This document shows positions 3,587 to 57,649 of a stretch of DNA of 64,000 bases, piece after piece; position 1 is the first letter of the stretch; each line of letters starts with the position of its first letter. Source of the stretch: Candidatus Cloacimonadota bacterium (GTDB taxonomy: Bacteria; Muiribacteriota; UBA6191). The notes under the pieces were generated by a model. That model ran no database searches and was not told the DNA's origin. It was given only the letters and a program-made list of their open reading frames with translations. A program made the position numbers and the translations under genes. Where the stretch lies: positions 300,468-364,467 of the forward strand of contig JAGSHD010000001.1 in assembly GCA_023954715.1 (NCBI GenBank), written 5' to 3'.

Positions 3587-3652
3587 TTTCATTCTCCTGC
3601 TTAGTTGTGATCCAAATGTATCCACAAACATCAAAACCCAATTGGTTTAAAT

Positions 3653-5437
3653 CTAGTTTGGCTCTGAATACATTGATTCTATTAATTTATTATATTTTTC
3701 TTCTATTACAAATCTTTTAATTTTCATTGTGGGAGTTAACTCACCACTTTCTATGGTTAAAGGAGTAACCACTAATCGAAATTTTCTAATTTGTTCCCAA
3801 TGGGACAAACCTCTATTTATGTTTTCGATATATTGTTGAATTTTTGCTTTTAAGTACTTACTCGCCACAAACTCTTCAACTCCTAAATCCGTCATTTTCT
3901 TTTTTCGTTTTAACTTTTCGATTTCTGCTAAATCCATAAATAAAAGACAAGATGGAAACTTACGACCTTCTGCAACCAGCATCGCAGATTCGATGTATTT
4001 ACTCTTTGTTAAATGTCTTTCAATGGATATGGGAGCTATATATTTCCCATTAGAGGTTTTAAAAATCTCTTTAATCCGTCCGACGATTCTTAGAAAGCCA
4101 TCATTATCAATTACACCTTTATCACCAGTGCGTAACCACCCATCAGGTAAAATTACATCACTAGTAGCCTCTGGGTTTTTATGATACCCACGCATCACAC
4201 TGTCAGACTTAGTCAATACTTCGCCACGCTCACTCAGTTTAATCTCTGTACCCTCTATGGCTTTACCTACAAACCCAATCTTATTAGAGCGTGGAGATGA
4301 GCTTGTGATTACAGGTGAAGACTCGGTTAAACCATATCCTTGAAAAACTGGCACCCCAATTTTTATAAAAAAGCTACAAATCCTTGGATTTAAAGCTGCT
4401 CCACCCAATATCAATGCCTTTAACTCTCCGCCAAGAGCAGCTCTAAATTTTGAGTAAACTAACCGATCAAAAATAGGTAAACACAGATAATAAAAAGGAT
4501 TGATTCGGTGATACGCTAATAAAAAAGCGATTCTAGCTAATCTTGCTTTAAAGCCTTTTTGAGATCGTATTTTTTTCTCCATGGCCTCATAAATTTTTTC
4601 AAGTAATCTAGGAACCATAGTCATCATATCTGGCTTAATCTCTTTGGCGTAATCAGCAGTCTTTTTTACATCATCTGCTATATATACATGAATATTCATA
4701 GCCAAATAGAAATATATAATCATCCGCTCAAAAGTGTGTGCTACCGGTAAACAAGAGATTGCAGTCTTTAAAACCAGATCTTCATGAAGAAGTTTTGATA
4801 CTGCTTTTACTTGGTGCAAGAGATTTTTGTGACTTAGTTCTACACCTTTTGGTAAACCTGTTGAACCACTAGTATAAATAATCGTTAACAAATCCTCAGC
4901 ATTACCGTTTTCTAACAACTTAGAATAGGCTGTTGGATCTTGAGAAAGAGACCGCTCTCCAAGAGTCATAACTTCAGAATATGAATTAATATTTAAGCCA
5001 GATTGAGGCTTTGCTGACTCTAAAGTGATTAGATCAGTTAAAGTACAATTTTCTAATGTAAATTCTTCAAAAAAAGCTTCATCTTCTACGACTAAATGAG
5101 AAACTTCCGCATGCTCCATTTGATGCTCAAACACTTCTTGAGATACATTGACAAAGACTGGGATATTGATAGCACCAATAGATAACAGAGCTAGATCGAA
5201 AAATACCCAATGTGCCGAAGATGGTATTAATAAAGCAACCCTATCTCCTGAGTTTATACCAAGCTTTGCTAGACCACAACTTAGACGTGTAACTTCTTGT
5301 TCTACGTCTGCTGATGAGTATGTTTTCCATTTGTTGCCTTCTCTAGAAGAAATTAACCGATCTGTGCCATGTTTGAAAATTACTTGGTTTAGTAAATCTT
5401 TCATTGTATCGCAATTTTGAAGTCGGTCTTGTAGCAC
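3653..5437 (-). CDS. Long-chain-fatty-acid--CoA ligase (AMP-dependent synthetase, FadD-like), probably with a GTG start.
   Basis: It has the AMP-binding motif YTSGSTGLPKGV, a PVAHTFER-like region, and GYGLTE...GEV. The codon at 5435-5437 is GTG, preceded by AGGAT with 6-nt spacing. An alternative ATG lies at 5402-5404. Confidence 0.85.
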   Translation of the reverse strand: MLQDRLQNCDTMKDLLNQVIFKHGTDRLISSREGNKWKTYSSADVEQEVTRLSCGLAKLGINSGDRVALLIPSSAHWVFFDLALLSIGAINIPVFVNVSQEVFEHQMEHAEVSHLVVEDEAFFEEFTLENCTLTDLITLESAKPQSGLNINSYSEVMTLGERSLSQDPTAYSKLLENGNAEDLLTIIYTSGSTGLPKGVELSHKNLLHQVKAVSKLLHEDLVLKTAISCLPVAHTFERMIIYFYLAMNIHVYIADDVKKTADYAKEIKPDMMTMVPRLLEKIYEAMEKKIRSQKGFKARLARIAFLLAYHRINPFYYLCLPIFDRLVYSKFRAALGGELKALILGGAALNPRICSFFIKIGVPVFQGYGLTESSPVITSSSPRSNKIGFVGKAIEGTEIKLSERGEVLTKSDSVMRGYHKNPEATSDVILPDGWLRTGDKGVIDNDGFLRIVGRIKEIFKTSNGKYIAPISIERHLTKSKYIESAMLVAEGRKFPSCLLFMDLAEIEKLKRKKKMTDLGVEEFVASKYLKAKIQQYIENINRGLSHWEQIRKFRLVVTPLTIESGELTPTMKIKRFVIEEKYNKLIESMYSEPN

Positions 5438-5493
5438 TCAATATCCTATGGGTCTAAAACAATTTATACAATGTTGTTTCTAGTATAAATTAA

Positions 5494-5553
5494 GTTAATT
5501 AACTAATCAGTTACATAATAAGTAACTAAATAGTTAACGTCAAGGATTAATCC
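5494..5553. promoter_or_regulatory. Cluster of TTAA-core palindromes upstream of the fad operon. These are GTTAATTAAC (5494-5503), AGTTAC-n7-GTAACT (5509-5527), GTTAAC (5532-5537) and GGATTAATCC (5544-5553). It is a candidate operator array.
   Basis: Four perfect or near-perfect inverted repeats with related half-sites sit within 60 bp of the 5' region of the fadD-fadA-fadB transcription unit. Confidence 0.3.
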
Positions 5554-5651
5554 ATAGAAAACTCGGTTATTTTTGTTAGTGACTACCAACAAATGGTATT
5601 CATTACAAAAGTTTTAGATTTTGTACTAAGCGGAACCAAAATTTTATACTA

Positions 5652-5690
5652 CAAAAAAGTCTCCAACTGATTGGATAGAGACTTTTTAAT
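5652..5690. terminator. Bidirectional rho-independent terminator. The stem is AGTCTC+CCAA / TTGG+GAGACT, flanked by an A-tract and a T-tract.
   Basis: The hairpin at 5658-5683 is preceded by AAAAAA and followed by TTTTTAATT. It lies about 90 nt downstream of the minus-strand gene ending at 5772. Confidence 0.6.
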
Positions 5691-5771
5691 TACTTTACTT
5701 GTCTGTTTGAAATATTCACAAAAGCTAAACCAATGTAAATTCAATCCTATGAATGGTTCATAGCTGACAGC

Positions 5772-7055
5772 CTACTTTTTATACAAACTATTAAAGTTTT
5801 CTGTTTTACTGTTTAGAGAGTATGCAACTTGAAAAAACTCTTTAAACCAAGGTAAATGTCGAAAACCATAATGTCCTCCATCTTCTAACAGAATAATATC
5901 TTTTCCACGTTTAGCATAGGCATTCCATAAAGCATCTGCATTTAAAAAATCATCTTCACAATTGATTACTCGAAAATGATCATAACCTGATTTTTTAGCC
6001 TGATTGATCCAATACAGCAAGTCTCCGTACTTTCCAACCAATTTCACTTTAGTTTCTGGGGCATAAACATCAAAAAATTTATGAAAGTTCATAGATCTTT
6101 TCCACTTTTTATATTTAGGAGATAATGACCCTAAAACTCCTCCAGGAATTGAATTCAAATTATTTACTTTATCAAAAACTTTGATAGATTTAATCAATTC
6201 ACTATGAAACCCCTGATAGACTGTTAAGCCCTGAGCTGTCTCGTAATGTTTTTCAGTTAATTCATTTTTCTTTTCAGCCTTGCAAAAGCTTTTATATCTC
6301 AACAATACGGATACTAAACTCATTCCCATAAAAGGCTCTTTACTCTCTAAAACCACTTGGTCTAAGCGATCTAAGGTTCGTCCAAAATTAAATGGTGCTG
6401 ATAATATTGTTGAATCGTAAAAACCAATTGGAGAGTCATTTTTTGCATCTAATGCACTAATAATTGCTGTTAAAAAAGATCCTGCACTCACACCAGCAAT
6501 TCTGATTTTGCTATGATCTACTAAGCCATCTTTATCTAGTCTAGTAATTGCTTGACGAAATGCAGAATAAATTGATTTCGCCTCTTCTTCTACATCACCT
6601 AACATAGCCTTAGGTTTAAGACCAACATAGTCTGTCCCCCATGGGTTGGGAGGAGAGATAACGTGATAACCTAGTCGAGTTCCTTCATCCATCCACTGTC
6701 TAGACTGCCCATTTTTTAAATTAGAAAAAGCACCCGGTATATAAAATAATACTGGTGCTTTTATTTTGTTTCCTTGGTCATCTTGCTGAAGTCCTACTCT
6801 TAAAGGCAGAGGCCCGTTTAAAAGAGATTCTACAGGCATTTCCCATTGCTCCACAGGAACAATCATATTTTTTTCTTTTGTTTTTGGCTTGTTACAAATA
6901 CTGCTCAAAGTTGCCACAAAACCATTTTGAAATGGATGACTATATTTTTCAGAGTGATCAATGACCTCTTGTGACCATCCCGCTGAAAAATTAACTGTCG
7001 TAAATAATAGACTAATAGCACCGTATAAAAGTGGTTTTGAAAGAACTTTCATCAT
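5772..7055 (-). CDS. Secreted alpha/beta-hydrolase (putative esterase/lipase) with an N-terminal signal peptide.
   Basis: A signal peptide (MMKVLSKPLLYGAISLLFTTVNFSAG) and the nucleophile elbow GVSAG (GxSxG) are present. A GGAG RBS precedes the start. Confidence 0.7.
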   Translation of the reverse strand: MMKVLSKPLLYGAISLLFTTVNFSAGWSQEVIDHSEKYSHPFQNGFVATLSSICNKPKTKEKNMIVPVEQWEMPVESLLNGPLPLRVGLQQDDQGNKIKAPVLFYIPGAFSNLKNGQSRQWMDEGTRLGYHVISPPNPWGTDYVGLKPKAMLGDVEEEAKSIYSAFRQAITRLDKDGLVDHSKIRIAGVSAGSFLTAIISALDAKNDSPIGFYDSTILSAPFNFGRTLDRLDQVVLESKEPFMGMSLVSVLLRYKSFCKAEKKNELTEKHYETAQGLTVYQGFHSELIKSIKVFDKVNNLNSIPGGVLGSLSPKYKKWKRSMNFHKFFDVYAPETKVKLVGKYGDLLYWINQAKKSGYDHFRVINCEDDFLNADALWNAYAKRGKDIILLEDGGHYGFRHLPWFKEFFQVAYSLNSKTENFNSLYKK

Positions 7056-7150
7056 GTATACATCTCCAAAAGATTTATTTAATAATAATTTTATGAATTA
7101 ATCTGTGTTAAATTGGCTCTAGGTTAAAATAAGATAAAAAGTAGGCACAT

Positions 7151-8263
7151 ATGAACCCAATTTTACAGAATCTTCTAGTATTCTACTGCTTTAGTGGCTT
7201 TTGGCAAGTCTTTGCAGTAAATAATCCCATTACTGATTGGAAAACTGATTATTCAAAAGAAAATTCAAAGCGTTTTCAACAACTAGACCAATACGCATTT
7301 TCTAATGACGAACCTTTTCATACAGATAGTCTACTAGTTATACAAAACAAAAAAATCGTCTACCAAAAGTTTGCCAATGGCTACAAAGTTGATCAAAAAC
7401 ATCGTATCTGGTCTATATCTAAAAGCATCAGTGCTATGTTGATTGGTATAGCCATCAAAGAAAAACTATTGTCTTTAGATGATTTAGTCTCAAAGTACTA
7501 TCCTCAGGTACAAGCAAACTATGCTAAGCAATTGAAACTTAGACACCTTATGCACATGAGCTCGGGATTTAACTGGAGCGAAGGATACGAATCAAACCCT
7601 TTTAACTCAGATGTAATCAAAATGCTTTACATAGATCAACACAAAGATATGGCTGCATATACTGCAAGTCGTCCTTTTTTACATCCTCCCGGTAAGGTAT
7701 TTCATTACTCTAGTGGTGAAACAAACTTAATCATGGGTATCTTAAAAAAGACACTCACTAAAGCTCAATACGATGACTATCCATGGAGAAAACTTTTTGA
7801 TCCTTTAGATATAAAAACCGCAACTTGGCAACAAGATTTATCGGGAACCTTCATAGGCTCATCATACCTCTTTATGAGTCCTAAAGATTTAGCTAAAATA
7901 GGGACCCTTATTTTACAAAAAGGTTTGTGGAACAATAAAAGAGTATTATCAGAAGACTACGTAAATTATATGACAAGCCTATCTCCCTCCATGAAAGCTC
8001 TCAAGTCTTTTGAAGACGATGAAAATGACTCTTATGGTGCTCAGTGGTGGCTAAATCAAGATTTAGCTAATAAAAAAGACAGTAAAAAATACCCTTCTGC
8101 TCCTGACGATACTATTTTAGGTCTTGGTCATCATGGACAACTCTTAGTGATTATTCCTAGTAAAAATGTGGTAATGGTTCGATATGCTTCTGATACTGAG
8201 GGAGCAATGGACAGAGATAAAATCCTTGAATATCTGATGGGGGCAATTCATGATAAAAAATAA
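7151..8263 (+). CDS. Beta-lactamase/transpeptidase-fold serine hydrolase (esterase/PBP-like), secreted.
   Basis: An N-terminal hydrophobic leader and the SxxK motif (SISK) are present near the N-terminus. YSSGE and HHGQ regions lie downstream. The length is about 370 aa, typical of the family. Confidence 0.75.
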   Translation: MNPILQNLLVFYCFSGFWQVFAVNNPITDWKTDYSKENSKRFQQLDQYAFSNDEPFHTDSLLVIQNKKIVYQKFANGYKVDQKHRIWSISKSISAMLIGIAIKEKLLSLDDLVSKYYPQVQANYAKQLKLRHLMHMSSGFNWSEGYESNPFNSDVIKMLYIDQHKDMAAYTASRPFLHPPGKVFHYSSGETNLIMGILKKTLTKAQYDDYPWRKLFDPLDIKTATWQQDLSGTFIGSSYLFMSPKDLAKIGTLILQKGLWNNKRVLSEDYVNYMTSLSPSMKALKSFEDDENDSYGAQWWLNQDLANKKDSKKYPSAPDDTILGLGHHGQLLVIIPSKNVVMVRYASDTEGAMDRDKILEYLMGAIHDKK

Positions 8264-8564
8264 TAAATTCAAGCTTTTGTTTGCTGTAGTTTTAATCTTA
8301 TCCTACTTTGCTTGGGATGCGTATATCAATAGTACTTTTAAAAGAGTCATACCCGCATCTTTTGTCACCGAGTTTTGCTCCTGCTATTATGTTGAAAAAC
8401 AAAGTCAAAAACACTGTGAATGGTACTCATCACAAATCATCTCGGTAAGCGACTATCACATAGATGAAGATAAAAAAGCCATAACAGCACACGGACTCCA
8501 CGAAGAAGCCCTGGCAGTATTTAAAAATGATCGTTTGGGTTGTGTTTTGATGGAAGAAAAGTAG
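8250..8564 (+). CDS. Small hypothetical protein with an N-terminal hydrophobic segment and four Cys.
   Basis: The ORF overlaps the upstream gene by 14 nt, suggesting coupling, and is followed by a strong terminator. There is no family assignment. Confidence 0.4.
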   Translation: MIKNNKFKLLFAVVLILSYFAWDAYINSTFKRVIPASFVTEFCSCYYVEKQSQKHCEWYSSQIISVSDYHIDEDKKAITAHGLHEEALAVFKNDRLGCVLMEEK

Positions 8565-8581
8565 AGTCAAACCCTATAATC

Positions 8582-8620
8582 CAAAAAAAGACCACACCGC
8601 AAGGCATGGTCTTTTTTTTA
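8582..8620. terminator. Bidirectional rho-independent terminator with stem AAGACCA/TGGTCTT and an inner GCAA loop.
   Basis: The 7-bp stem at 8588-8594 / 8607-8613 is preceded by AAAAAAA and followed by TTTTTTTT. It lies between convergent genes. Confidence 0.65.
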
Positions 8621-8636
8621 GGTCGAAGATTTAATC

Positions 8637-9299
8637 TTATTTTTTGAATAATTCGTAGTTTTCTTCTTCGTCATTACCGTTACCATCGTAAGAGTATTCT
8701 GGTTTAGAGTCTTCACTTTCAATCTCTCCACCTCGTACAGATAATCTTACATAATAATCTTTAATATTACTTCTTACTTCAGAGACTACATGACGAAGTC
8801 TAATTTTTGTTTCAAATTTAGAGGCCCCTGCACCAAAGTAACCAGCACTTTGAGCTTGCTCCACTTTTGCCTTAACATCAACATAAAATGTTTGAATCAC
8901 ATCATCTGAAATCATATTGTCTTGCATTAACTCCAATTTGATCGGTACAGAAACACAAGAGCCTACTTCTTTGACCTCTGCGTAGTCTCCACCAGCTTCA
9001 GCAAGTTTACAATTCGATCCGACAGATCCACCTTTTGCCAAAGCTAATTTTGCTTTTACTGTACCACTAGTAACTAAAACAAAACCACCATCACCGGATC
9101 CTACTTCATAGAGTTTGTGAGAAATGTCACCAGACAAGCTATCTTTGTGAACGAAAGTATCTTTTGAACTTTGGTTTTTACTTTCTTTCCACGTGTAGTC
9201 TTCACTATTATCCCAATTTACATAGACATGATCCCCTGCTACTAATGGATTAATCAAGACGGATACTACTGCTAGAGATTTAAAAAATTTATTTAACAT
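8637..9299 (-). CDS. Hypothetical secreted protein.
   Basis: A signal peptide (MLNKFFKSLAVVSVLINPLVAG) and an acidic C-terminus are present. No recognisable catalytic motif was seen. Confidence 0.55.
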   Translation of the reverse strand: MLNKFFKSLAVVSVLINPLVAGDHVYVNWDNSEDYTWKESKNQSSKDTFVHKDSLSGDISHKLYEVGSGDGGFVLVTSGTVKAKLALAKGGSVGSNCKLAEAGGDYAEVKEVGSCVSVPIKLELMQDNMISDDVIQTFYVDVKAKVEQAQSAGYFGAGASKFETKIRLRHVVSEVRSNIKDYYVRLSVRGGEIESEDSKPEYSYDGNGNDEEENYELFKK

Positions 9300-9504
9300 T
9301 TTGGTCCTAAGTGTTAGCTATTACAAATATGTACATTTAAATTATAAGTATAATTATAATCTTGTCTAGTGCTTTTACTTTAAGTATTTACAAATTATCC
9401 TTAATCTAACGACTTGCCAAAATCCATATACTTACTATAATATTCTGATACATCCGTAATAATATAGTAAATTATTTATTCTCATCATTCTATTTAGGAC
9501 TTAT

Positions 9505-10530
9505 ATGCTTAAAATCTTTGTCTTTTCTACCTTTATTTTATCAATGATTAACACTGTCTTTTGTGAAAATATACAGTTTGGAGGTATAGAGATTTCATTT
9601 AGTGAATCCAAAGCTCCGCAAGACATTAATGAAACTCGCTTTTTATATAATCGTTTACTTGAATACGCAACAGCCTCTGAACTAGCCTATGAAGACGATG
9701 ATAAGATATTAGAAAAGTATCCCGATGCTGAGATTGGCCTTTTAGAAGATACTAACGTTAAATTTTTTGTTGTAAAAAACCACAAGAAAAAGACTCAATT
9801 TATTGCCTTTCGTGGAACAGCCGGTTTTACCAATATCTTGATTGATGCAACCTTTTGGCCTCATAAAGACGAAACTATCGGAGTCAATGTACATAAGGGC
9901 TTTTTTAAAGTTGCCAGAGAGTTTTTTAAAGAAGGAATCCAAAAACTAAATCCAAAGTATCAAACTACCTTAACTGGTCATTCTCTAGGTGCTGCTGTAG
10001 CAGCATTAGTCGGTATGAAACTTCAAAAAGCTTCTTATAAAGTACAAGAAGTAGTAACCTTTGGACAACCTCGCTTTACAGATATTAAAGGTGCAAAGTA
10101 TATTAGTGGTTTACCCGTTGTTCGAGTTGGAGAAATGAGAGATTTAATCACTTTCTTACCACCACTATGGATTACAGACTTTCAACATTTTGGTGATAAA
10201 TTAGAGTTTAGAGATGGTGAAGGTTATGAGTACATCAATAACAACCAAGAAAACACTATCGATAATATTGTCGCTCTACAAAAACCTGAGGTTTTGGCAT
10301 TATGGTTACAATTTCTTGATGAACATTCTCAAGAGCCAATAAAATCACCTGAATATATTGAGATTAAAAAATATCTGTCTACTGTTACTTTAGATCATGA
10401 ATTACTCGGTAATTGGACTCCCTTTCATCGTATAGCCAATTACATCAGTGAAATTAAACGATGGTTTATTGATTCAAAAACAAAAGAAGCCAAGAAAAAT
10501 AAGTTTTATAATAAATCATTAACAAACTAA
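9505..10530 (+). CDS. Secreted class-3 (fungal-type) triacylglycerol lipase family protein.
   Basis: A signal peptide and the GHSLGAAVA nucleophile elbow are embedded in a Lipase_3-like context (FRGT...TGHSLG...). Confidence 0.8.
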   Translation: MLKIFVFSTFILSMINTVFCENIQFGGIEISFSESKAPQDINETRFLYNRLLEYATASELAYEDDDKILEKYPDAEIGLLEDTNVKFFVVKNHKKKTQFIAFRGTAGFTNILIDATFWPHKDETIGVNVHKGFFKVAREFFKEGIQKLNPKYQTTLTGHSLGAAVAALVGMKLQKASYKVQEVVTFGQPRFTDIKGAKYISGLPVVRVGEMRDLITFLPPLWITDFQHFGDKLEFRDGEGYEYINNNQENTIDNIVALQKPEVLALWLQFLDEHSQEPIKSPEYIEIKKYLSTVTLDHELLGNWTPFHRIANYISEIKRWFIDSKTKEAKKNKFYNKSLTN

Positions 10531-10577
10531 AAAAAAATCCCCCACTGAAACATAAATTTCAGTGGGGGATTTTTTAA
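10531..10577. terminator. Bidirectional rho-independent terminator with a perfect 13-bp stem (TCCCCCACTGAAA / TTTCAGTGGGGGA).
   Basis: The stem spans 10538-10550 / 10557-10569 with loop CATAAA. It is flanked by A8 and T6 and lies between convergent genes. Confidence 0.75.
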
Positions 10578-13500
10578 TTAACTAAGCATCCCTTTTAAAG
10601 ACCTATAGTCAGTTTTACCTGTTCCTAACAATGGTATTTCTTCTACCTTGATAAACTTGTTGAGTCTACCAACATTAGAAAACCCTGCTTCTTTTAATAA
10701 GTTATTAGCTTCATCAAAGCTGATATCTAAAGTAGAGAACAAACACATAATGGGTCGTTCCCCATCAATTTCAAGTGCCTCAATAGCCACAAGTGGCCCT
10801 TCTTCACCTGCTGGCCATTGTTTTACAATTACAGACTCCATAGCTGGAATAGAAATCATCTCACCGGCAATTTTAACAAACCTCTTTAAACGACCAGCCA
10901 AAATTATATTGCCATTTTCGTCTAAAAACCCTAAATCACCTGTATTGTAATATGTTTGCCCTTCTACTTCTATAAATGGATTAGGTGGGTTTTCGCCGAT
11001 ATAGCCATTAAAGATATTATCCCCTTTTACTATAATTAGACCACGCTCGCCTTGAGATAAAATTGCTTTACTATCGATATCTACAATTTTTACTGTAACA
11101 GCATCAATAGGTTTACCCACGCCAGCTCTATCTATTCCAACTCGATTGGCACTAATGATTGGAGAGCATTCTGTGATTCCGTATCCTTCTATCAAAGATG
11201 AAGTTTCACAAGTATCTGATACTACTTTAAACAAAGCATCTGGTACTTTTTCTGCTCCAGCTACAATGTAACGGATACTTTGTAACTGCTCTCTTTCTCC
11301 AGCTTTATAAATTGCTGCTGCAAAAGATGGGGTTCCACAAATTATAGTGCTTTTCCAGGTGTTAATACCATAAGCCAATCTCTTAGCCTCCGTTGGATTT
11401 GCATAATACGATACTTTACATCCAGTGGTTAAAGGAAGGATCGTTGTAATGGTAAAGCCAAATGAATGAAATGGAGGTAAAAAACCATACATGGCATCAT
11501 CATGCTGAAACGGCATAATTTCAAAAGCACTAACAACATTTGACAATACATTTTTATGAGTAAGAGATACTCCTTTTGGCACAGTCTCTGACCCTGAAGT
11601 AAACAATACCACAGCTTCATCATCTTCATTAATCTCATCTAAATGATATTTAGCAATCAGACTTTTTGCCGGTTTTTTTGACTCTAATGCTGCTTTAATT
11701 TTTTCAAAAAGAGTAAACTCGTCTTTTCTTAGATCTTCTAAAAATACCAATCTATCTTCTAAGCAGCCTAAGTCTACTGAGCCAAGCTTATCAACAAACT
11801 TTAAGGATGAAATTACCACTTCGATTCCGGATACTTTTTGTACATGCTCTAGGTTTCTTGAACCCAAGGTCCAGTTTACCATTACAGGTACTTTACCTGC
11901 ATAATAACAAGCCATAGTTACTAATGCTGCCCCACAACTAGCAGGAAGCATCACACCAATACGTTTGTCTTCGATCTTTCTTAGATAAGATGCTATTAAT
12001 AATGCTGCCAACTTAGACTTTTTATTGGATAATACTCCAGAGTTGTCATCAGCCATACAAACATGAGAACCAAGTCGATCACAAGATAACATCATTGCTT
12101 CAGCCATGGTTTTAGCCAATGGTGGTAAAACATCAGGCCGCTTTTGAGTAGACTCCCAACCTTCTGGTGTTTTAGTTTCAAACTCTTCTTCTGACTCACC
12201 ACCAGTTGCTGCAATTACAACAACAGATGCCACCGTAGTAATGGTAGTCGCGTCAAAGTTATTTACTTCAAAAATGTCCTCAAGCCATATTAAAATCTCA
12301 GACCTATCCAATGAGTCTAATCCTAGATCATCATTAATATGATCATCTAAATTAATATCCTTTGGATCCTTATTTAACATTTTTGAAAATTCAAAGATGA
12401 CTTTTTCAACGATCTCTTGATCGATATTTGAAACATCAATCTCTTCTTTTTGTGCTTTTTCTAGAGTTTCTGGAAGCTCATTATACCACCTACAAAGAGA
12501 TACAGGCGCAATCTCTTGTCGAGTGCCTTGATTATAGTAATTTTCTAACCATTCATTTCTTTCATTTTTATCAGCATTATAAGGAAAGTCCGCTGGTGCT
12601 AGCTCCAAGTTAATATGAACAGGACGCTTAGGAACAAAAAATATTAAGTTTTTAGCCAAAATCTTAAGCACTCTTAAAAGCAATGGTCCAGGATCTGGTG
12701 TCACACCCGCTGTATGAGCAGTAGAGGATAATGATCCCCATAAACCAGTTGTCCTTGCTAAAACCACATTGATATTGGGATTAGACTTTAGAATAATATC
12801 TACTGCTGACGCCCCCTTCATATCCTCTACTCCGTTTCGCATTAAGCGACCGGCAGGATATAATAATACGTTTTCTCCATCCTCAAGACTTTGGGCAGTA
12901 TCACTAAAGACTTTATTCATTCTTTTTAATTTAAAATAGCTTGTGCCTTGATCCATGTCGGGTACGGGAATAGCATTTACAAAATTGAGTAATTGATTTA
13001 ACACCGGTAGAGTATAAAATGTCTCCGTAACTAAGGGGCGTATCTTAAAGTGTGATAATAAACCACTAGCCATAATCAAAGGATCTAACTCAGCTGGATG
13101 ATTTGGCATGATCAACATACCTTTTTTACCCTTTAAGTTTTCAAGACCACTAATACTCACTTTATAACGTAAATTAACGAGTTTTTTAATAATAAAAGCC
13201 AAAGCTCTAAGAGATAAATTATAACCCCTTTCACTATTAGGAAGAAGAGTGATTAAAGGTAAAATTGATGCGAAGATTACAGCTGCAATAAAGATAAATT
13301 GAGTTGTTTCATTCAATACTTGAAATTTTAATAAGCCGCCAATTACTAAACCAATAGAAAAACAAAAGAATGAAACCCAGGCACTTTGAAATGCTGCTCC
13401 AGTACCTTCTTTTTTCTCTTCTCCTACTAAGCGCAAATACTCGGAGTCAATCAAGTTTGCACATATACCAAATACAGCACCTAAAACTCCCATAAGTACA

Positions 13501-14450
13501 GCAGCAATGATGTATATATTATGGTTTTCTTCTAAAACTAAGGTAGGACCACATGCTTGTATAATAAATGGAAAAGCAAAAGTGATTGCAAAAAATATGA
13601 ATCCAGCCCCAAAAGCTGATACAAAACGTAAAGATTGAAATCTTGGAGCAAGTATTGACCCAATAATTATACCAATGGCTGCCCATAATGACATATATAC
13701 ACATTGTTCAGCCGTACCTAAATTTAATTTTTCACAATAAGCTGTAATAGCTAAACTAACTACACTTGAACAACCCCAAAGCATAGGTGCAGAAATCAAA
13801 TAGGCCCAATATCTAGTAAACAAATAAAAGGACTCTTCAACCAAAGTAGAAGAACTTTCTTTATACGATATTAAATCTTCATCTGGAAACTTTACCAATG
13901 AGCCAAAAATCCCTGCTAAAAGTAAAACTCCAGCCGCAATTTGAGCTCCTAATTCAGGATTGACTCTTTGATATTCTTCACCAAAGGTAACACCAGCAAT
14001 CATAGCCACAATCATTATTACTGTTAAGGTACTGTTTATTTGAATTGTAGACTTGTTACTAAATTTAGCTAGTAAAGGTACACTAGCCATTTTAGCTGAA
14101 TTATAAATTCCAATAAGTAATCCTACAAATCCTACGTAAAACCATGCTGTGAAAACCCACCCTGACAAATGCCCACCAAAAAACAAAATGGCAGACATTA
14201 ATCCAGTAGATAACATAATGATTCGTTTATTGGTTGATGCCGCTAAAGGTCCCGATACAAAAAATATTAGAGTGGGTCCTAAAGTAAAAATGGACGCTAC
14301 AAATTGAATAATCCATTCTTTCTCCGCAGCGATCTGCTCTGGTATTCCGTTACCAGCAACAAAGGCAATATGTCCTACAATGTAGAACTTGATAAAGCCC
14401 ATTCCAAAACTAGCAAAAAATGTAGCTAGTATTAAATAAAAAAACATCAT
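10578..14450 (-). CDS. Four-domain fusion protein of 1290 aa. The N-terminus is an LplT-like MFS lysophospholipid transporter. It is followed by a PlsC-type acyltransferase (2-acyl-GPE acyltransferase-like), an embedded acyl-carrier/PP-binding domain, and a C-terminal AMP-binding acyl-ACP/CoA synthetase (Aas-like).
   Basis: There are about 12 hydrophobic TM segments in the first ~400 aa. The HX4D motif NHPAELD lies at 13091-13111. The PP-binding motif DDLGLDSLDRSEIL lies at about 12300-12340. The adenylation motif FTSGSETVPKG lies at about 11565-11600, with YGITE and GDLG downstream. GGAG lies 8 nt upstream of ATGATG. Confidence 0.85.
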   Translation of the reverse strand: MMFFYLILATFFASFGMGFIKFYIVGHIAFVAGNGIPEQIAAEKEWIIQFVASIFTLGPTLIFFVSGPLAASTNKRIIMLSTGLMSAILFFGGHLSGWVFTAWFYVGFVGLLIGIYNSAKMASVPLLAKFSNKSTIQINSTLTVIMIVAMIAGVTFGEEYQRVNPELGAQIAAGVLLLAGIFGSLVKFPDEDLISYKESSSTLVEESFYLFTRYWAYLISAPMLWGCSSVVSLAITAYCEKLNLGTAEQCVYMSLWAAIGIIIGSILAPRFQSLRFVSAFGAGFIFFAITFAFPFIIQACGPTLVLEENHNIYIIAAVLMGVLGAVFGICANLIDSEYLRLVGEEKKEGTGAAFQSAWVSFFCFSIGLVIGGLLKFQVLNETTQFIFIAAVIFASILPLITLLPNSERGYNLSLRALAFIIKKLVNLRYKVSISGLENLKGKKGMLIMPNHPAELDPLIMASGLLSHFKIRPLVTETFYTLPVLNQLLNFVNAIPVPDMDQGTSYFKLKRMNKVFSDTAQSLEDGENVLLYPAGRLMRNGVEDMKGASAVDIILKSNPNINVVLARTTGLWGSLSSTAHTAGVTPDPGPLLLRVLKILAKNLIFFVPKRPVHINLELAPADFPYNADKNERNEWLENYYNQGTRQEIAPVSLCRWYNELPETLEKAQKEEIDVSNIDQEIVEKVIFEFSKMLNKDPKDINLDDHINDDLGLDSLDRSEILIWLEDIFEVNNFDATTITTVASVVVIAATGGESEEEFETKTPEGWESTQKRPDVLPPLAKTMAEAMMLSCDRLGSHVCMADDNSGVLSNKKSKLAALLIASYLRKIEDKRIGVMLPASCGAALVTMACYYAGKVPVMVNWTLGSRNLEHVQKVSGIEVVISSLKFVDKLGSVDLGCLEDRLVFLEDLRKDEFTLFEKIKAALESKKPAKSLIAKYHLDEINEDDEAVVLFTSGSETVPKGVSLTHKNVLSNVVSAFEIMPFQHDDAMYGFLPPFHSFGFTITTILPLTTGCKVSYYANPTEAKRLAYGINTWKSTIICGTPSFAAAIYKAGEREQLQSIRYIVAGAEKVPDALFKVVSDTCETSSLIEGYGITECSPIISANRVGIDRAGVGKPIDAVTVKIVDIDSKAILSQGERGLIIVKGDNIFNGYIGENPPNPFIEVEGQTYYNTGDLGFLDENGNIILAGRLKRFVKIAGEMISIPAMESVIVKQWPAGEEGPLVAIEALEIDGERPIMCLFSTLDISFDEANNLLKEAGFSNVGRLNKFIKVEEIPLLGTGKTDYRSLKGMLS

Positions 14451-14503
14451 ATATACTCCTATAAGGATATTGAGTATTAAGTACTCTAGTTCACTTTATT
14501 GTG

Positions 14504-15085
14504 TTATGACTGATCTTCTTTGATTCCGATCAATTCAAATAATAACTCCATCTGATTTTTTTGAAAACCATTGCTTGCCAAATAAGATATGGGAAGCAAT
14601 TGCATGATACCAAGACCTAGGCCCCAATGTACTAGTGCCCAAGATAAACTCTGCGCATTAGATTGAAAGTCGGATAATAGTTGCTCAAGTAGCTCAGCAA
14701 ATTTTTCAAAAGTGATCGATAACTGATGTTGGATCTGACTTGAGTTATTTTGAACTACCAATTTTTGCAATAACATAAACTCAGAACTCTTATCACTTGG
14801 AGTACAAGTAAAGTTTTTGGTTATGATTTGCAAGGCACATTTAGAGTCTTTAGTACTCTTTATCAAGTCTGACCATTTGGCTAATTGTTTTTCACGAGCT
14901 GATTCTATACAACTTAGTATAATATCTTCTTTTTTTTTGAAGCAACGATATAAAATCATCTCTTTAACATTAAGTTGTTGAGATAACTCTTTTGTCGTCA
15001 AAGCGGAAACTCCACCCAGAGCTATAATCTCAGTTGCTTTAGCTACAATTTGAATTTTTCTATCTGCTGTTTTTATTCTTGTCAT
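14504..15085 (-). CDS. TetR-family transcriptional regulator.
   Basis: An N-terminal HTH (ATEIIALGGVSALTTKELSQQLNVKEMILYRCFKKKEDI) is typical of the TetR/AcrR family. The length is about 190 aa. The gene is co-oriented with and lies 53 bp upstream of the lipid fusion gene. Confidence 0.75.
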   Translation of the reverse strand: MTRIKTADRKIQIVAKATEIIALGGVSALTTKELSQQLNVKEMILYRCFKKKEDIILSCIESAREKQLAKWSDLIKSTKDSKCALQIITKNFTCTPSDKSSEFMLLQKLVVQNNSSQIQHQLSITFEKFAELLEQLLSDFQSNAQSLSWALVHWGLGLGIMQLLPISYLASNGFQKNQMELLFELIGIKEDQS

Positions 15086-15091
15086 ATATAG

Positions 15092-15111
15092 ATGTTAGTA
15101 AGGACTAACAT
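15092..15111. promoter_or_regulatory. 20-bp palindrome ATGTTAGT-AAGG-ACTAACAT, 7 bp upstream of the tetR start codon. It is a candidate autoregulatory operator.
   Basis: Perfect 8-bp arms abut the TetR translation start, the classical position for TetR-family operators. Confidence 0.4.
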
Positions 15112-15338
15112 AATTGTCAATAGTGAATATCAAAAAATCTCATTCTTATATATGACTCTTTGTTAGTATCTACAGTAATATAGATACTTTTAGCCTAAAA
15201 AATATAATAAGACATTGCTAATACACAGAAGAAAACTGCATTTGGACTTCGTACAAGTTTCAGTTTATCTATCATCTTTTGTAATGATCGACAAGAAAGA
15301 AGTTTCTAATTATTCAAACGTAAGATTCAAACAGGTTT

Positions 15339-15839
15339 TTATATTTTTGGATTGGACTGAACTTGAAACTGCTTACTGAATCTTAAGTGATCCTCAGCAA
15401 GTTTTTGTTCGATGACTTTTGTAATCAAGGATTGAAAAAGTTTAGCAAACATGCCGTCTACCTGATACTCTACTTGAGTTTCTACAATGGATTTTTTATT
15501 AGCTTCGACGATAGTTGTACTAAAAGACCCCCGAATTCCTTTTAACGAAAACTCTCCCGAATGTTTGTCGCTATCATAGGAGTAGTCGATTTGCTCTTGT
15601 CGCTCTAAAAGACTTAAAACGCCTTGTCCTTGCTTAGACTTTTCATCAAATTTCAAAGATACAAAACCATCGATCAAGTTGTACTCTAAGGGTGGTTTAG
15701 CAATAAAGGTATTAACATTAACTTTGGATTGATCTATCTCTACACTAAGTACAAATTGATCTTTACCATCCATAAAATAAACCACAATCAATAAAACTAT
15801 AGATGCTGTTACTAAAATTGAAAATATTTTTTTTGCCAT
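15339..15839 (-). CDS. Hypothetical membrane-anchored protein, encoded 14 bp downstream of the patatin autotransporter gene.
   Basis: An N-terminal TM helix (ILVTASIVLLIVVYF) is followed by a soluble ~140-aa domain. There is no confident family assignment. A lipid-binding SRPBCC-like fold is a guess only. Confidence 0.5.
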   Translation of the reverse strand: MAKKIFSILVTASIVLLIVVYFMDGKDQFVLSVEIDQSKVNVNTFIAKPPLEYNLIDGFVSLKFDEKSKQGQGVLSLLERQEQIDYSYDSDKHSGEFSLKGIRGSFSTTIVEANKKSIVETQVEYQVDGMFAKLFQSLITKVIEQKLAEDHLRFSKQFQVQSNPKI

Positions 15840-15853
15840 AAAACTATACTCTT

Positions 15854-18025
15854 TTAAAATGAATATCCTATAGATACAAAACTACTCATATGATGACCGT
15901 TATGAAACACACTAAACTCAAGTGGACCAGCTTTAGTTAATTTAGCTAGAGTGATTCCACCAGATTTATTCATGGCAGAAAAAGAGTCTACATCAGCCTT
16001 AGTATAGCCTGTACTACCAACATTATACCTCAATAATACATAAGTGTTGGCTAATAGTTCATATTGAGCACCAACCATAGCACTTTGCAGGTAGTTTCCA
16101 CCATTAGAGTGTCTATCAAATCCATACAAAGTGGACATATCATAGAAGTTTCCGTATCCACCTTGAGCAAAAGCTGACTGTACACTCAGCTTCTTACCAT
16201 CTAAGTGCCCTCTCTTGTATGCAGTGAGAAGACTAAAACGGCTATTTAAAGGTGTTACTTTAAACAATGAGATTATCTTCTTAACATACTCTGAATCATT
16301 ATTTAAATCACTTGCTGCCCAACTAATTTCAAAATCATATTTCTCCCCTGATTTTGGAAAGTAGGTAGAATCTAAAGAGTCATAATTAACTGCACTATAC
16401 AATAAAGTTTCGTGTTCTTTTTTATTTAATTTTACAATTGCTTTGTTTTCATCTAGCCAATTATTTGCCAGTTTTAAACCAGAACGAATCGAAAAGTTAT
16501 TTTCTAAGATCGATCCTAGAGTAACATCCAATTGAAGTCTCTTATAATCTAACTCATTGATAGGCTTAGTAAGTTTGTCAAAATTAAAATATAGCTCTTC
16601 TTGGTATAATGCTTGTATTCGTAAAGCAGATAAGTGCTTTTTATGATTATTTAAATAAACGATACTTTGAGCTTTAAAGCTGTTTTTATTTCCTAGTTTC
16701 ATATCAAACAACAACTGTGAAATATTTTTTGAAAACTGATTTACCGTAGTATTGATTAAGGCCTCTGTTCTACCATGACGATCATATCTCAATCCAAAGT
16801 TAAATGATCCGCTGTCCTTTTCTTTAACTTTTACCACAAGAGTCTGACCATCGATCTGATAAGATACTAATTCAAAAAATAATGACCGATAGATTTTAGA
16901 GATGGCTGCTGAAATATCTTTTTCAGAAAACTCTGAGGGTAATTTTAATCCAGCTTCTCTTATCACAAATGAAGTAGGAACCTTTGCATTACCTTCTACC
17001 TTTATACTTATAATTTTAGCTTTCAAATCATGATCTGCTAAACATTTAGGTCTTCTTCTCAAGGAGACTTTAGCAGCTTTTAAAAGTGATTTAATTTCAG
17101 GGAGAGCTTTTCTAGCAGCATCTTCTCCCATTTTTATCCAATCCTCAATACGATCAAAGTTTTTAGCTGACATTTCAAGTACATTGGGTCGAATCAATAC
17201 ATCACAAAGAGCTCTTTGTTTATCATTATTTTTAGTATTGGTAAAACTTACCGTTTGATCCATAATAGCTACTAAATTATCAAGCTTTTCGGCCTTATGT
17301 AGCTTAGATCCAACGTCAACACCAATTACAATATCAGCACCCATTTCGATAACGTCTTTTACAGGAAAGTTCCGTACCATCATTCCATCAGCTAATAATT
17401 TGCCTTTATAACGTTTTGGTGTAAATGCATTTGGCAAGCCAATACTTGCTCTCATAGCCTCGGGTAGATTACCAGAAGTAATTGTTACCGCATCACCACT
17501 CTCAAGATCTGTTGTAATAGCAGCAAATGGTATTTTAAATTTAGAAAAGTCTCTTACATTATGATATGGCCATGCACTTGTTGCTAATACGGACTCCATT
17601 CGTTGTCCAGCTACTAAACCACTTGGTAAGTTTATATGCCCATCCCTAAAAGGAAGACTCACTACATACCTATCTAGCTGATCTTTTTGCTCCATAGAAA
17701 CAGCATTTCTTTTTGGTTTGTCATCTAATAAATAGTCCCAATTTTGCTTTAGAAGTTTCTCTTCAAGCTCCAATGCTGTACAACCTACTGAGTATAATCC
17801 CCCAATAACAGATCCCATGCTCGTTCCTGAGATAAGGTCCACTGGAATACCTTCTTCTTCAAAGACTTTTAAGACTCCAAGATGAGCGAACCCTTTAGCA
17901 GCACCACCACTTAAGGCTAAGCCAACTTTAATCGGATTTACTTTGTGGTAATCAACACTTGCTTCATTTTCTGAATAATTTAATTGTATTAAGCTAATAA
18001 ATAGAAAAACATAAAATATTTTCAA
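15854..18025 (-). CDS. Patatin-like phospholipase fused to a C-terminal outer-membrane beta-barrel (type Vd autotransporter, PlpD-like).
   Basis: A signal peptide, the oxyanion GGAAKG, the nucleophile GTSMG (GxSxG) and the Asp motif ADGMM are present. A ~400-aa C-terminal region has alternating amphipathic strands and ends in SIGYSF, an aromatic terminal residue typical of OM barrels. Confidence 0.8.
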   Translation of the reverse strand: MKIFYVFLFISLIQLNYSENEASVDYHKVNPIKVGLALSGGAAKGFAHLGVLKVFEEEGIPVDLISGTSMGSVIGGLYSVGCTALELEEKLLKQNWDYLLDDKPKRNAVSMEQKDQLDRYVVSLPFRDGHINLPSGLVAGQRMESVLATSAWPYHNVRDFSKFKIPFAAITTDLESGDAVTITSGNLPEAMRASIGLPNAFTPKRYKGKLLADGMMVRNFPVKDVIEMGADIVIGVDVGSKLHKAEKLDNLVAIMDQTVSFTNTKNNDKQRALCDVLIRPNVLEMSAKNFDRIEDWIKMGEDAARKALPEIKSLLKAAKVSLRRRPKCLADHDLKAKIISIKVEGNAKVPTSFVIREAGLKLPSEFSEKDISAAISKIYRSLFFELVSYQIDGQTLVVKVKEKDSGSFNFGLRYDRHGRTEALINTTVNQFSKNISQLLFDMKLGNKNSFKAQSIVYLNNHKKHLSALRIQALYQEELYFNFDKLTKPINELDYKRLQLDVTLGSILENNFSIRSGLKLANNWLDENKAIVKLNKKEHETLLYSAVNYDSLDSTYFPKSGEKYDFEISWAASDLNNDSEYVKKIISLFKVTPLNSRFSLLTAYKRGHLDGKKLSVQSAFAQGGYGNFYDMSTLYGFDRHSNGGNYLQSAMVGAQYELLANTYVLLRYNVGSTGYTKADVDSFSAMNKSGGITLAKLTKAGPLEFSVFHNGHHMSSFVSIGYSF

Positions 18026-23243: not shown

Positions 23244-26372
<3,129 letters not shown>

Positions 26373-57546: not shown

Positions 57547-57649
57547 ACAAGGACCTTTGGAAACTTTTTTACGATGTTTTCGTATTATATATGACGATGT
57601 TAAATTAATTCAGTATTTGAATGAGTTTTATACCAATCTAAGGACCAAT

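Follow-up and report, generated by a model that had tools for sequence, protein, structure and literature searches.

The locus analyzed here raises the question whether lysophospholipid uptake, fatty acid activation and re-acylation could be carried out by a single polypeptide that brings along its own acyl carrier. To our knowledge, Gram-negative envelopes have no dedicated route of lysophospholipid repair other than the LplT/Aas system. This system protects against host PLA2 and T6SS lipase effectors. A preliminary description of the window (the whole stretch of DNA analyzed, 64,000 nucleotides) had placed an LplT-like transporter and an Aas-like enzyme in one 1290-aa ORF.

Gene structure and origin of the fusion

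The gene product has four domains in the order MFS, PlsC, ACP and adenylation. Pfam and NCBIfam searches both recovered this order, as proposed earlier. The gene, its domains and the flanking elements are located in the window as follows.

10578..14450, minus strand: four-domain fusion gene, a complete ORF (1290 aa and a stop codon) whose single product carries MFS, PlsC, ACP and adenylation domains
13236..14450, minus strand: MFS transporter domain, residues 1-405, with 12 TM helices (6+6) and a central loop at 187-217; distantly LplT-like
12531..13208, minus strand: PlsC-family acyltransferase domain, residues 415-640; its C-terminal extension is specific to the family
13083-13103, minus strand: HX4D motif NHPAELD of the PlsC domain, residues 450-456
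12426..12530, minus strand: linker 1 between PlsC and ACP, residues 641-675, a predicted coil (core residues 226-263 lack secondary structure in the AF2 model)
12201..12425, minus strand: acyl carrier domain, residues 676-750 (PF00550, TIGR00517)
12312-12314, minus strand: codon of the predicted phosphopantetheine attachment residue Ser713, within DDLGLDSLDRSEIL (residues 707-720)
12114..12200, minus strand: linker 2 between ACP and the adenylation domain, residues 751-779, a coil at core residues 336-367 of the model
10581..12113, minus strand: Aas/AasC-type adenylate-forming (acyl-ACP synthetase-like) domain, residues 780-1290
14456..14460, minus strand: Shine-Dalgarno sequence AGGAG, read from the sequence 6 nt 5' of the ATG of the fusion gene
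10532..10575, minus strand: intrinsic terminator-like hairpin, a 20-bp stem and then a T tract, immediately 3' of the stop codon
14504..15085, minus strand: TetR-family regulator (PF00440), adjoining the fusion gene upstream and co-directional with it
15092..15120, minus strand: sigma-70-like promoter TTGACA-17-TAACAT, 5' of the TetR gene; the best match, on weak evidence

The ORF call at 10578-14450 on the minus strand gave one frame of 1290 aa without interruption, and the fused state reported at the outset recurs: full-length orthologs with all four domains came from 13 independent genome assemblies, and more were present among metagenome proteins. Fused relatives share 92% (P0001) and 79% (P0002/L001) identity with the query, and others come from 12 further genome assemblies of several phyla. 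In a census of 1.84 billion proteins, the full-length four-domain form had at least 21 representatives. In principle, a frameshift introduced during sequencing or assembly could have merged adjacent MFS and PlsC-ACP-A genes, as close relatives do have two overlapping genes and the L010 locus has two overlapping ORFs. Such an artefact is extremely improbable given the recurrence of the fusion across independent assemblies and in the protein census, the gap-free alignment of fused members in the junction region, and an ORF with a Shine-Dalgarno sequence and a terminator of its own. The single-ORF fusion is genuine and does not result from misassembly.

The TetR gene is kept upstream of both fused and unfused orthologs (L001, L004, L005 and L010; L082-L084), and its product is the probable regulator of the fusion gene. 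Promoter-like sites around the fusion gene were no more numerous than expected from shuffled sequences. The GC content is uniform over the four domains (0.33-0.37). The terminator-like hairpin separates the fusion gene from a convergent lipase gene. The neighborhood is lipid-related and includes this lipase_3 gene, a patatin-Omp85 phospholipase and a beta-oxidation gene set; in the loci compared, conservation of the lipase and patatin neighbors stops at the closest relative of the fusion gene.

Transporter domain

The N-terminal domain contains 12 TM helices arranged as two 6-helix bundles and has the MFS fold according to a structure search. The predicted topology places the C-terminal enzymes on the cytoplasmic side. 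The proposed check with PF07690 (MFS_1) gave a divided result, since the model matched residues 7-370 but scored 24.3 bits, below the gathering cut-off of 33.4.

The earlier designation of this domain as LplT-like holds for homology but not for close kinship. Among 18,950 NCBIfam models LplT was its sole match (19.9 bits, E = 3e-4), and profile-profile alignment with hhalign put it in register with LplT and with the MFS domains of classical LplT-Aas fusions at 95% probability. The pairwise comparison with Escherichia coli LplT gave E = 0.02. The LplT family cut-off is 297 bits (PRK11195), and the score of 19.9 bits rules out membership in this equivalog. By these profile comparisons the domain is a distant LplT relative. 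Its structural neighbors include exporters and lipid transporters alike, the fold search being blind to substrate class. The coupling of the transporter to an Aas-type enzyme is in cis here and takes the form of an adjoining gene with a 4-bp overlap in L082-L084.

Acyltransferase and adenylation domains

The remaining HMM checks all gave matches above the cut-off or strong ones. The PF01553 match covers residues 431-541 with 38.1 bits (cut-off 23), and the AMP-binding PF00501 match covers residues 815-1150 with 198 bits. The motifs quoted earlier (HX4D, DDLGLDSLDRSEIL, TSGSETVPKG, YGITE and GDLG) are all present.

Residues H451 and D456 of the PlsC domain are invariant in sets of 11 and 69 sequences. 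Taken alone, the PlsC part matches PRK08633 at positions 415-564 (E = 1e-16). It is 25% identical to the transferase domain of E. coli Aas (E = 1e-5), has weak NCBIfam matches to the lipid acyltransferases OlsF and GlsA (E about 1e-3), and carries a family-specific C-terminal extension of ~100 residues. Given this low identity and the weak OlsF and GlsA matches, any assignment of the acceptor lipid is tentative.

The adenylation domain contains the motifs A3 (TSGSETVPKG, 951-960), A5 (YGITE, 1090-1094), A7 (GDLG, 1171-1174), A8 (GRLKRFVKIAGEMIS) and A10 (GTGKTDY, with K1279). All core motifs of the ANL superfamily are present and conserved, and a Foldseek search retrieved ANL structures at E = 3e-33. 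The modeled domain superposes best on structures in the thioester-forming state, and its neighbors include the thiolation-state structures EntE-EntB, PltF-PigG and LgrA. It is 31% identical to residues 204-708 of E. coli Aas (E = 6e-63).

At the level of the whole protein, the best curated match is PRK08633 with 499 bits (equivalog cut-off 1221), followed by the chlamydial AasC-type model PRK06334 with 412 bits; PRK06814 scored 335 bits (cut-off 1349) and PRK08043, the model of E. coli Aas, 249 bits (cut-off 886). As judged from these models, the best curated matches of all three soluble parts are Aas-type families, and the protein falls outside every curated equivalog. BLASTP against E. coli Aas aligned the PlsC and adenylation domains in the same order, with ~160 extra residues at the Aas-T/Aas-S junction. 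As in Aas-type enzymes, PlsC precedes the adenylation domain within one chain; Aas-type enzymes use soluble ACP in trans and have no carrier domain, whereas a carrier domain is present here.

Embedded acyl carrier domain

The motif noticed earlier between HX4D and the AMP-binding domain belongs to a full ACP domain. The TIGR00517 model matches it at positions 2-70 of 77 (E = 8e-11), and the PP-binding PF00550 model matches residues 684-730 with 24.5 bits, above the gathering cut-off of 20.8. The TIGR00517 match is near full length, yet its score of 41.7 bits is below the cut-off of 70.45 for stand-alone AcpP equivalogs, so we classify the carrier as an ACP-type domain and not as an AcpP equivalog. 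It shares 33% identity with E. coli AcpP.

The alignment proposed as a check showed that the DSL serine, Ser713, is invariant across the family: a DS[L/I/V] serine and the carrier domain are kept in 80/80 related genome loci and 126/126 database relatives. In the AF2 model of the core, which is confident (pLDDT 88.9, pTM 0.86), helix II (core 299-313) begins at Ser713, and helices I and IV are present. Residue W765 of linker 2 is invariant in the family alignment. On sequence grounds, the carrier is a complete domain, AcpP-like rather than PCP-like, and its motif is not due to chance. No ACP match was found in E. coli Aas even at E <= 10, nor at this threshold in classical LplT-Aas fusions (0/9 full-length sequences).

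Distribution and gene states of the family

The clade defined by the inserted carrier is, by database census, widespread, with at least 310 clusters at 50% identity, mainly from environmental Chlamydiota, Lentisphaerota and Bdellovibrionota. The four-domain form is a minority; the three-domain PlsC-ACP-A protein is more widespread. These proteins have about 870-950 aa and bear the automatic names 'AMP-binding protein' or 'Bifunctional protein Aas'. They share 39-52% identity with the query over 98-100% of its 876-aa core, including the ACP insert and its serine. Unlike the query they have no MFS domain, although in some lineages an overlapping MFS gene adjoins them.

In the closest three-domain relatives (L082-L084), a TetR gene is followed by a separate MFS gene and then by the gene for PlsC-ACP-A, the latter two overlapping by 4 bp (ATGA). 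These adjoining, overlapping genes bear out the earlier reading of the fusion as a 'Rosetta stone'. Since unfused relatives keep the transporter and the core as translationally coupled neighbors behind the same TetR gene, both likely belong to one pathway. In the related loci examined, about 80% of the family members have no MFS partner in the same locus, and most chlamydial loci have no homologous MFS gene near the core gene. Hence, the core may work without a dedicated transporter.

Proposed mechanism and alternatives

We propose that the gene product is probably a self-contained machine for lysophospholipid uptake and re-acylation, a variant of LplT/Aas with a covalent ACP, a reading based on domain assignments and structural models. 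The phosphopantetheinyl transferase of the cell would convert the embedded ACP into its holo form at Ser713. The Aas/AasC-like domain would use ATP to turn a free long-chain fatty acid, its likely substrate, into acyl-AMP, and would then thioesterify the acyl group onto the tethered phosphopantetheine arm. The ACP, flanked by coil linkers about 30 and 35 residues long, could swing to the PlsC domain, where the H451/D456 dyad of HX4D would use the acyl chain to acylate a lysophospholipid at its free hydroxyl. The 12-helix MFS domain is predicted to act inward, flipping lysophospholipid of the outer leaflet or periplasm over to the cytoplasmic face, beside the acyltransferase. The expected outcome is strict channeling, by which scavenged fatty acids would enter lysolipid re-acylation only, neither drawing on the soluble AcpP of fatty acid synthesis nor mixing with this pool.

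The embedded ACP might instead be a structural or docking remnant, such as a spacer or a decoy recruiting partners, with soluble AcpP serving in trans. E. coli Aas and Chlamydia trachomatis AasC indeed use soluble ACP (PMC6167442), the PP-binding Pfam score is modest, and a precomputed PF00550 call is missing for many relatives. We nevertheless consider this quite improbable: the serine in its D-x-x-x-D-S-L context persists in every related locus and protein down to 31-40% overall identity, and a spacer with a purely structural role could do without it. Moreover, the carrier matches AcpP models end to end, and in the structural model its serine has the canonical helix-II geometry and the domain lies between flexible linkers, like swinging carriers.

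A somewhat stronger, though still unlikely, competitor concerns the product. The enzyme could make or remodel another lipid, such as an N- or O-acyl amino-acid lipid, one with an acylated head group such as acyl-PG, or one derived from another lysolipid-like acceptor, while the MFS domain exports the product or imports a different precursor. The divergence of PlsC with its family-specific extension, its OlsF and GlsA matches, the distance of the MFS domain from bona fide LplT and the mixed structural neighbors of this domain are consistent with such a role, as are reversed-order A-ACP-PlsC carrier-tethered proteins in other phyla. Against it, every catalytic part matches Aas-type families best among curated models, the domain order is identical to that of known LplT-Aas fusions, and LplT is the only curated match of the transporter domain. 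We thus favor lysophospholipid re-acylation.

With an in-cis carrier, the channeling long known for E. coli Aas would be made covalent in the carrier-containing clade. The protein could serve as a single-chain, cofactor-complete system for studying how a carrier shuttles from an adenylation site to an acyltransferase at the membrane surface beside the exit of a flippase. Classical fusions without ACP, the ACP fusion, the split operon, the MFS-less core and the chlamydial LpaT/AasC pair form an evolutionary series in which coupling can be tested. The annotation of hundreds of genomes, among them those of most environmental Chlamydiota, would be revised, as the carrier has been overlooked so far under the current names 'AMP-binding protein', 'MFS transporter' and 'Bifunctional protein Aas'. 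If the carrier is private, these organisms would scavenge fatty acids in isolation from FASII, with a bearing on the interplay of FASII inhibitors and exogenous lipids in chlamydia-like organisms.

We tentatively speculate that the PlsC-ACP-A core could be an ancient branch of its own within lysophospholipid recycling, typical of the PVC group and Bdellovibrionota, a closed 'private carrier' circuit wholly independent of the FASII AcpP pool, and that the split LpaT/AasC state of Chlamydiaceae arose from it by carrier loss; we regard this scenario as possible rather than probable. If true, the repeated fusion and fission of the MFS domain would provide a natural series for dissecting the coupling of flippase, carrier and acyltransferase.

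Comparison with known systems

Whether this architecture had been described before was left undecided in the preliminary description. The LplT-Aas fusion in a single ORF has already been noted (PMC11416262) and is covered by the NCBIfam models PRK08633 and PRK06814, and FAAL-like fusions with lysophospholipid acyltransferases get a passing mention (PMC8460268). The embedded carrier is the unusual element and appears to be undescribed.

The E. coli system has the same components in an equivalent logical order: an MFS lysolipid flippase, a PlsC-type transferase and an Aas-type adenylation domain, with 31% (adenylation) and 25% (PlsC) identity to the query and MFS domains homologous at the profile level. 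LplT and Aas form a physical complex via the transferase domain (PMC11416262). Aas retains acyl-ACP and channels this intermediate to the transferase domain of the same protein (PMC6167442, PMC5693948); this intermediate that is not released (PMC6167442) resembles the channeling proposed here. In E. coli, however, two proteins are encoded by adjoining, unfused genes, as stated earlier, in the order aas, lplT, whereas the query is one chain; and the E. coli ACP is separate and soluble, whereas the query has an ACP-containing insertion of ~160 residues at the transferase/synthetase junction.

Classical LplT-Aas fusions (PRK08633/PRK06814) share with the query the MFS-PlsC-A order in one polypeptide. 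An example is PA3267 of Pseudomonas aeruginosa, which protects against phospholipase attack by T6SS lipase effectors (PMC12663445). These proteins have about 1135-1157 aa and no ACP, compared to 1290 aa with ACP in the query, and they align only to its C-terminal ~40%, at 29-32% identity.

In C. trachomatis, LpaT (CT775) and AasC (CT776) serve lysophospholipid re-acylation and fatty acid scavenging (PMC6167442, PMC5693948), and by analogy a similar role may be assigned to the query, whose adenylation domain matches the AasC-type model PRK06334 (412 bits). LpaT and AasC are separate proteins, and soluble acyl-ACP is both used and released into FASII and to other acyltransferases. In the query, such release should be prevented by the tethering of the carrier.

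NRPS A-T didomains and FAAL-ACP loading modules follow the same chemical logic, in which an ANL domain loads an in-cis carrier that passes its cargo to a transferase. The carrier is also tethered in the reversed-order A-ACP-PlsC proteins (P0026, P0028, P0029 and P0031), which have the opposite domain order and share just 27-29% identity over 20-23% of the query. From these carrier-tethered systems the query differs by its transferase-carrier-adenylation order, with an AcpP-like carrier located N-terminal to an Aas-type adenylation domain.

A single reading frame with four domains

The gene at 10578-14450 on the reverse strand is one open ORF without interruption and encodes a fusion protein of 1290 residues, with an MFS-type transporter, a PlsC acyltransferase, an acyl carrier protein (ACP) domain and an adenylation (A) domain in this order. 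The preliminary description had placed a transporter and an Aas-like enzyme in a single ORF; the intact frame confirms this, and all the motifs quoted there are found in the translation where expected. The Pfam models match AMP-binding at residues 815-1150 (198 bits), Acyltransferase at residues 431-541 (38 bits) and PP-binding at residues 684-730 (24.5 bits, above the gathering score of 20.8), in agreement with the proposed domains. The LplT-like character of the transporter is upheld only in part: the domain is of the MFS type, with an MFS_1 match at residues 7-370 of 24.3 bits, under the 33.4 cut-off, but its likeness to LplT is distant. Pairwise BLASTP against E. coli LplT reaches just E = 0.02, and the kinship shows in a profile-profile comparison (95% probability). 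The predicted topology of 12 transmembrane segments places the PlsC, ACP and A domains all in the cytoplasm. Base composition varies little from domain to domain (GC 0.33-0.37).

Features of the fusion gene (10578-14450, reverse strand) and its product
Residues 450-456: HX4D motif (NHPAELD), PlsC domain
Residues 707-720: carrier motif DDLGLDSLDRSEIL, including Ser713
Residues 951-960: TSGSETVPKG, A domain
Residues 1090-1094: YGITE, A domain
Residues 1171-1174: GDLG, A domain
K1279: A10 lysine, A domain
6 nt 5' of the ATG: Shine-Dalgarno sequence AGGAG
10532-10575: terminator hairpin with a 20-bp stem, immediately 3' of the stop codon

The embedded carrier domain

Scanned alone, the carrier region aligns with positions 2-70 of the 77 in TIGR00517, the model for type II FAS ACPs (E = 8e-11), and matches a dozen further ACP models; over 69 residues it shares 33% identity with E. 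coli AcpP. The AlphaFold2 model of the core (residues 415-1290, PlsC-ACP-A without the MFS domain), with a 69-sequence alignment as input, is confident (pLDDT 88.9, pTM 0.86). Helices I, II and IV are seen in the modelled ACP, Ser713 is the first residue of helix II, and the domain has a coil linker on either side (about 30 and 35 residues).

Residues D708, D712 and S713, together with H451 and D456 of the PlsC domain, are invariant in an alignment of 11 full-length relatives (31-92% identity). A scan of GTDB with one genome per species yielded at least 586 relatives; the best 80 loci were examined, and every one has an ACP-HMM match (35-106 bits) and the D-S-[L/I] motif. Likewise, a carrier domain with DS[L/I/V] is present in all 126 database members of the family. 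No carrier match is seen, even at E <= 10, in E. coli Aas or in nine classical fusions, the LplT-Aas single-ORF proteins of ~1135 aa. Because the carrier is kept throughout both sets and absent from these proteins, it is, judged by sequence conservation, a selected and clade-defining feature.

Relation to Aas

The top NCBIfam match of the fusion protein is PRK08633, a model of 1147-aa MFS-PlsC-A fusions (499 bits), followed by PRK06334 of the chlamydial AasC type (412 bits), PRK06814 (335 bits) and PRK08043, E. coli Aas (249 bits); all four scores are well under the equivalog cut-offs. By BLASTP, the A domain (780-1286) is 31% identical to residues 204-708 of E. coli Aas (E = 6e-63), and the PlsC domain (422-540) is 25% identical to residues 7-112 (E = 1e-5). 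In comparison with E. coli Aas, about 160 extra residues are found at the junction of transferase and adenylation domains, the site of the ACP. The Foldseek matches of the core model in the PDB are ANL enzymes; they are dominated by the A domain and have no bearing on the placement of PlsC and ACP. The tightest superpositions are with thioester-forming-state DltA (3e7w), PltF-PigG (7thq) and a MenE ternary complex, and adenylate-state structures superpose far worse.

Distribution of the family and the state of the transporter

An exhaustive search of 1.84 billion representatives with the family-specific PlsC-ACP segment found 310 clusters at the 50% identity level (E <= 1e-30). Most members have the three-domain form, PlsC-ACP-A without an MFS domain, in about 870-950 aa; their main sources are environmental Chlamydiota (Waddlia, Parachlamydia, Rhabdochlamydia, Anoxychlamydiales), Lentisphaeria and Bdellovibrionota. 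The four-domain form with MFS is found at 13 of the 80 genome loci examined, in 21 of the 126 family proteins from databases and in no fewer than 24 of the 150 best census matches. The four-domain loci are in MAGs with the labels Cloacimonadota, Opitutia, Victivallales, UBP17, UBP3 and Bdellovibrionota, and in rumen bacteria.

The nearest three-domain relatives, database proteins P0036 and P0037 (about 51% identity), are encoded in an operon of TetR, MFS (402 aa) and PlsC-ACP-A (886 aa) genes, in which the MFS stop and the core start overlap (ATGA). The stand-alone MFS protein is 40% identical to residues 1-389 of the fusion protein (E = 4e-90). The operon is seen in three independent assemblies; it is direct Rosetta-stone evidence, as had been proposed, and excludes an assembly artefact. 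A frameshift or assembly error, which would make two genes of the one, was also rejected because fused orthologues are numerous and independent; the ORF itself is open.

A TetR gene also lies upstream of fused forms, at 14504-15085 in the window and in four related loci (L001, L004, L005, L010), and it is the only neighbour kept across the family in the loci compared. In a rough neighbor-joining tree, without bootstrap, the four-domain forms are scattered on basal branches and interspersed with three-domain forms, and a large chlamydial clade is entirely three-domain. This scatter implies that the MFS partner was repeatedly fused, split off or lost; the tree sets no polarity.

Several loci show further arrangements. 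In L010, a relative with 51% identity, TetR (4123-4746) precedes overlapping MFS (4802-6034) and PlsC-ACP-A (5959-8415) ORFs, which is either a genuine split as in locus L082 or a frameshift in the L010 assembly. Two rumen/gut MAGs have a separate 555-aa AasC-like adenylation ORF directly after the four-domain gene and overlapping its end (L012, 11770-13434; L041, 11771-13435). An uncultured Chlamydiae contig (L022) carries tandem PlsC-ACP-A paralogues at 7968-10415 and 10589-13360. Proteins of a separate family (P0026, P0028, P0029 and P0031; about 810-860 aa) have the reversed order of adenylation, carrier (LDELGLSSLDR) and PlsC domains, which suggests that carrier-tethered acyl activation and acyl transfer arose independently.

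Genomic neighborhood

Lipid-related genes within 18 kb include a lipase_3 gene, a patatin-POTRA-Omp85 phospholipase, an esterase-like protein of the beta-lactamase fold and a FadB/FadA/FadD-like set. Such surroundings are in keeping with lipid scavenging or repair.

Lipid-related neighborhood of the fusion gene
114-2339 (-): FadB-like enoyl-CoA hydratase/3-hydroxyacyl-CoA dehydrogenase
2291-3634 (-): thiolase
3653-5437 (-): acyl-CoA synthetase
5772-7055 (-): 427-aa ORF with no Pfam match
9505-10530 (+): class 3 lipase with GHSLG serine motif and N-terminal hydrophobic leader
15854-18025 (-): patatin-like phospholipase with POTRA and Omp85, 723 aa, a PlpD-like outer-membrane autotransporter lipase

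The beta-oxidation-type set (114-7055, reverse strand) is located just downstream of the lipase and fusion region and, with the genes at 7151-18025, makes up this neighborhood of about 18 kb. The lipase gene and the fusion gene are convergent and have the terminator hairpin in common; the patatin-POTRA-Omp85 gene is two genes upstream of the fusion gene. Both were rejected as conserved partners: none of the related loci compared has a counterpart of the lipase, and one of the patatin-Omp85 protein is present only in the closest relative, L001 (77% identity), besides a partial patatin-domain match in L034.

Rfam and tRNA scans of the window gave no hit of taxonomic use. Elsewhere in the window, a stretch of raised GC (0.41 vs about 0.34 for the window) holds an ORF of 1032 aa with repeats of the collagen triple-helix type (23244-26342, reverse strand), which contains a 292-aa ORF on the opposite strand (25252-26130). 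A 331-aa fusion of a response-regulator receiver and an adenylate/guanylate cyclase catalytic domain is encoded at 33769-34764 (reverse strand). Two adjacent large ORFs of 545 and 436 aa (55909-58867, forward strand) match none of the Pfam models at E <= 1e-3.

Proposed mechanism

We propose that phosphopantetheine is added to Ser713, and that a long-chain fatty acid would be adenylated by the Aas-like domain and then loaded on the tethered arm. The linkers could let the ACP swing to the PlsC site (H451/D456), where the acyl chain would be transferred to a lysophospholipid supplied by the MFS domain through flipping to the cytoplasmic leaflet. Such a tethered carrier predicts strict channelling, independent of the soluble AcpP pool.

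Alternatively, the ACP may have lost its function and be a mere remnant, but the invariance of S713 argues against this. Another possibility is that the product is a different lipid or that the MFS domain works as an exporter, given how far both the PlsC and the MFS domain have diverged and given weak NCBIfam matches of PlsC to OlsF and GlsA. The fusion protein is a clear and testable example of carrier capture by a lipid-repair enzyme rather than a new principle.

Comparison with known systems

Full-text literature searches, of incomplete coverage and thus not proof of absence, turned up no account of a built-in carrier in any Aas or LplT-Aas protein; one paper briefly notes FAAL-like fusions to lysophospholipid acyltransferases (PMC8460268). 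Public databases name the relatives automatically ('AMP-binding protein', 'Bifunctional protein Aas', 'MFS transporter'); a few composite names from JGI contain 'acyl carrier protein'. The MFS-PlsC-ACP-A architecture is visible in databases and has been left uninterpreted.

In some bacteria lplT and aas form one ORF, and such proteins were called uncharacterised (PMC11416262); one classical fusion, PA3267 of P. aeruginosa, helps to resist T6SS lipase attack (PMC12663445). The acyl-ACP of E. coli Aas is channelled solely to its own transferase domain, and in C. trachomatis LpaT and AasC are separate proteins, with acyl-ACP released to FASII (PMC6167442, PMC5693948). A MAG named 'Chlamydia trachomatis' (L079, CAMAVL010000025.1) has a three-domain ACP-containing form; it probably comes from an environmental chlamydia and carries the wrong taxonomic label. 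The tethered-carrier family bears on chlamydial lipid metabolism. The transporter-Aas fusion is already known; the distinctive feature here is the in-cis ACP of a large, mostly MFS-less family.
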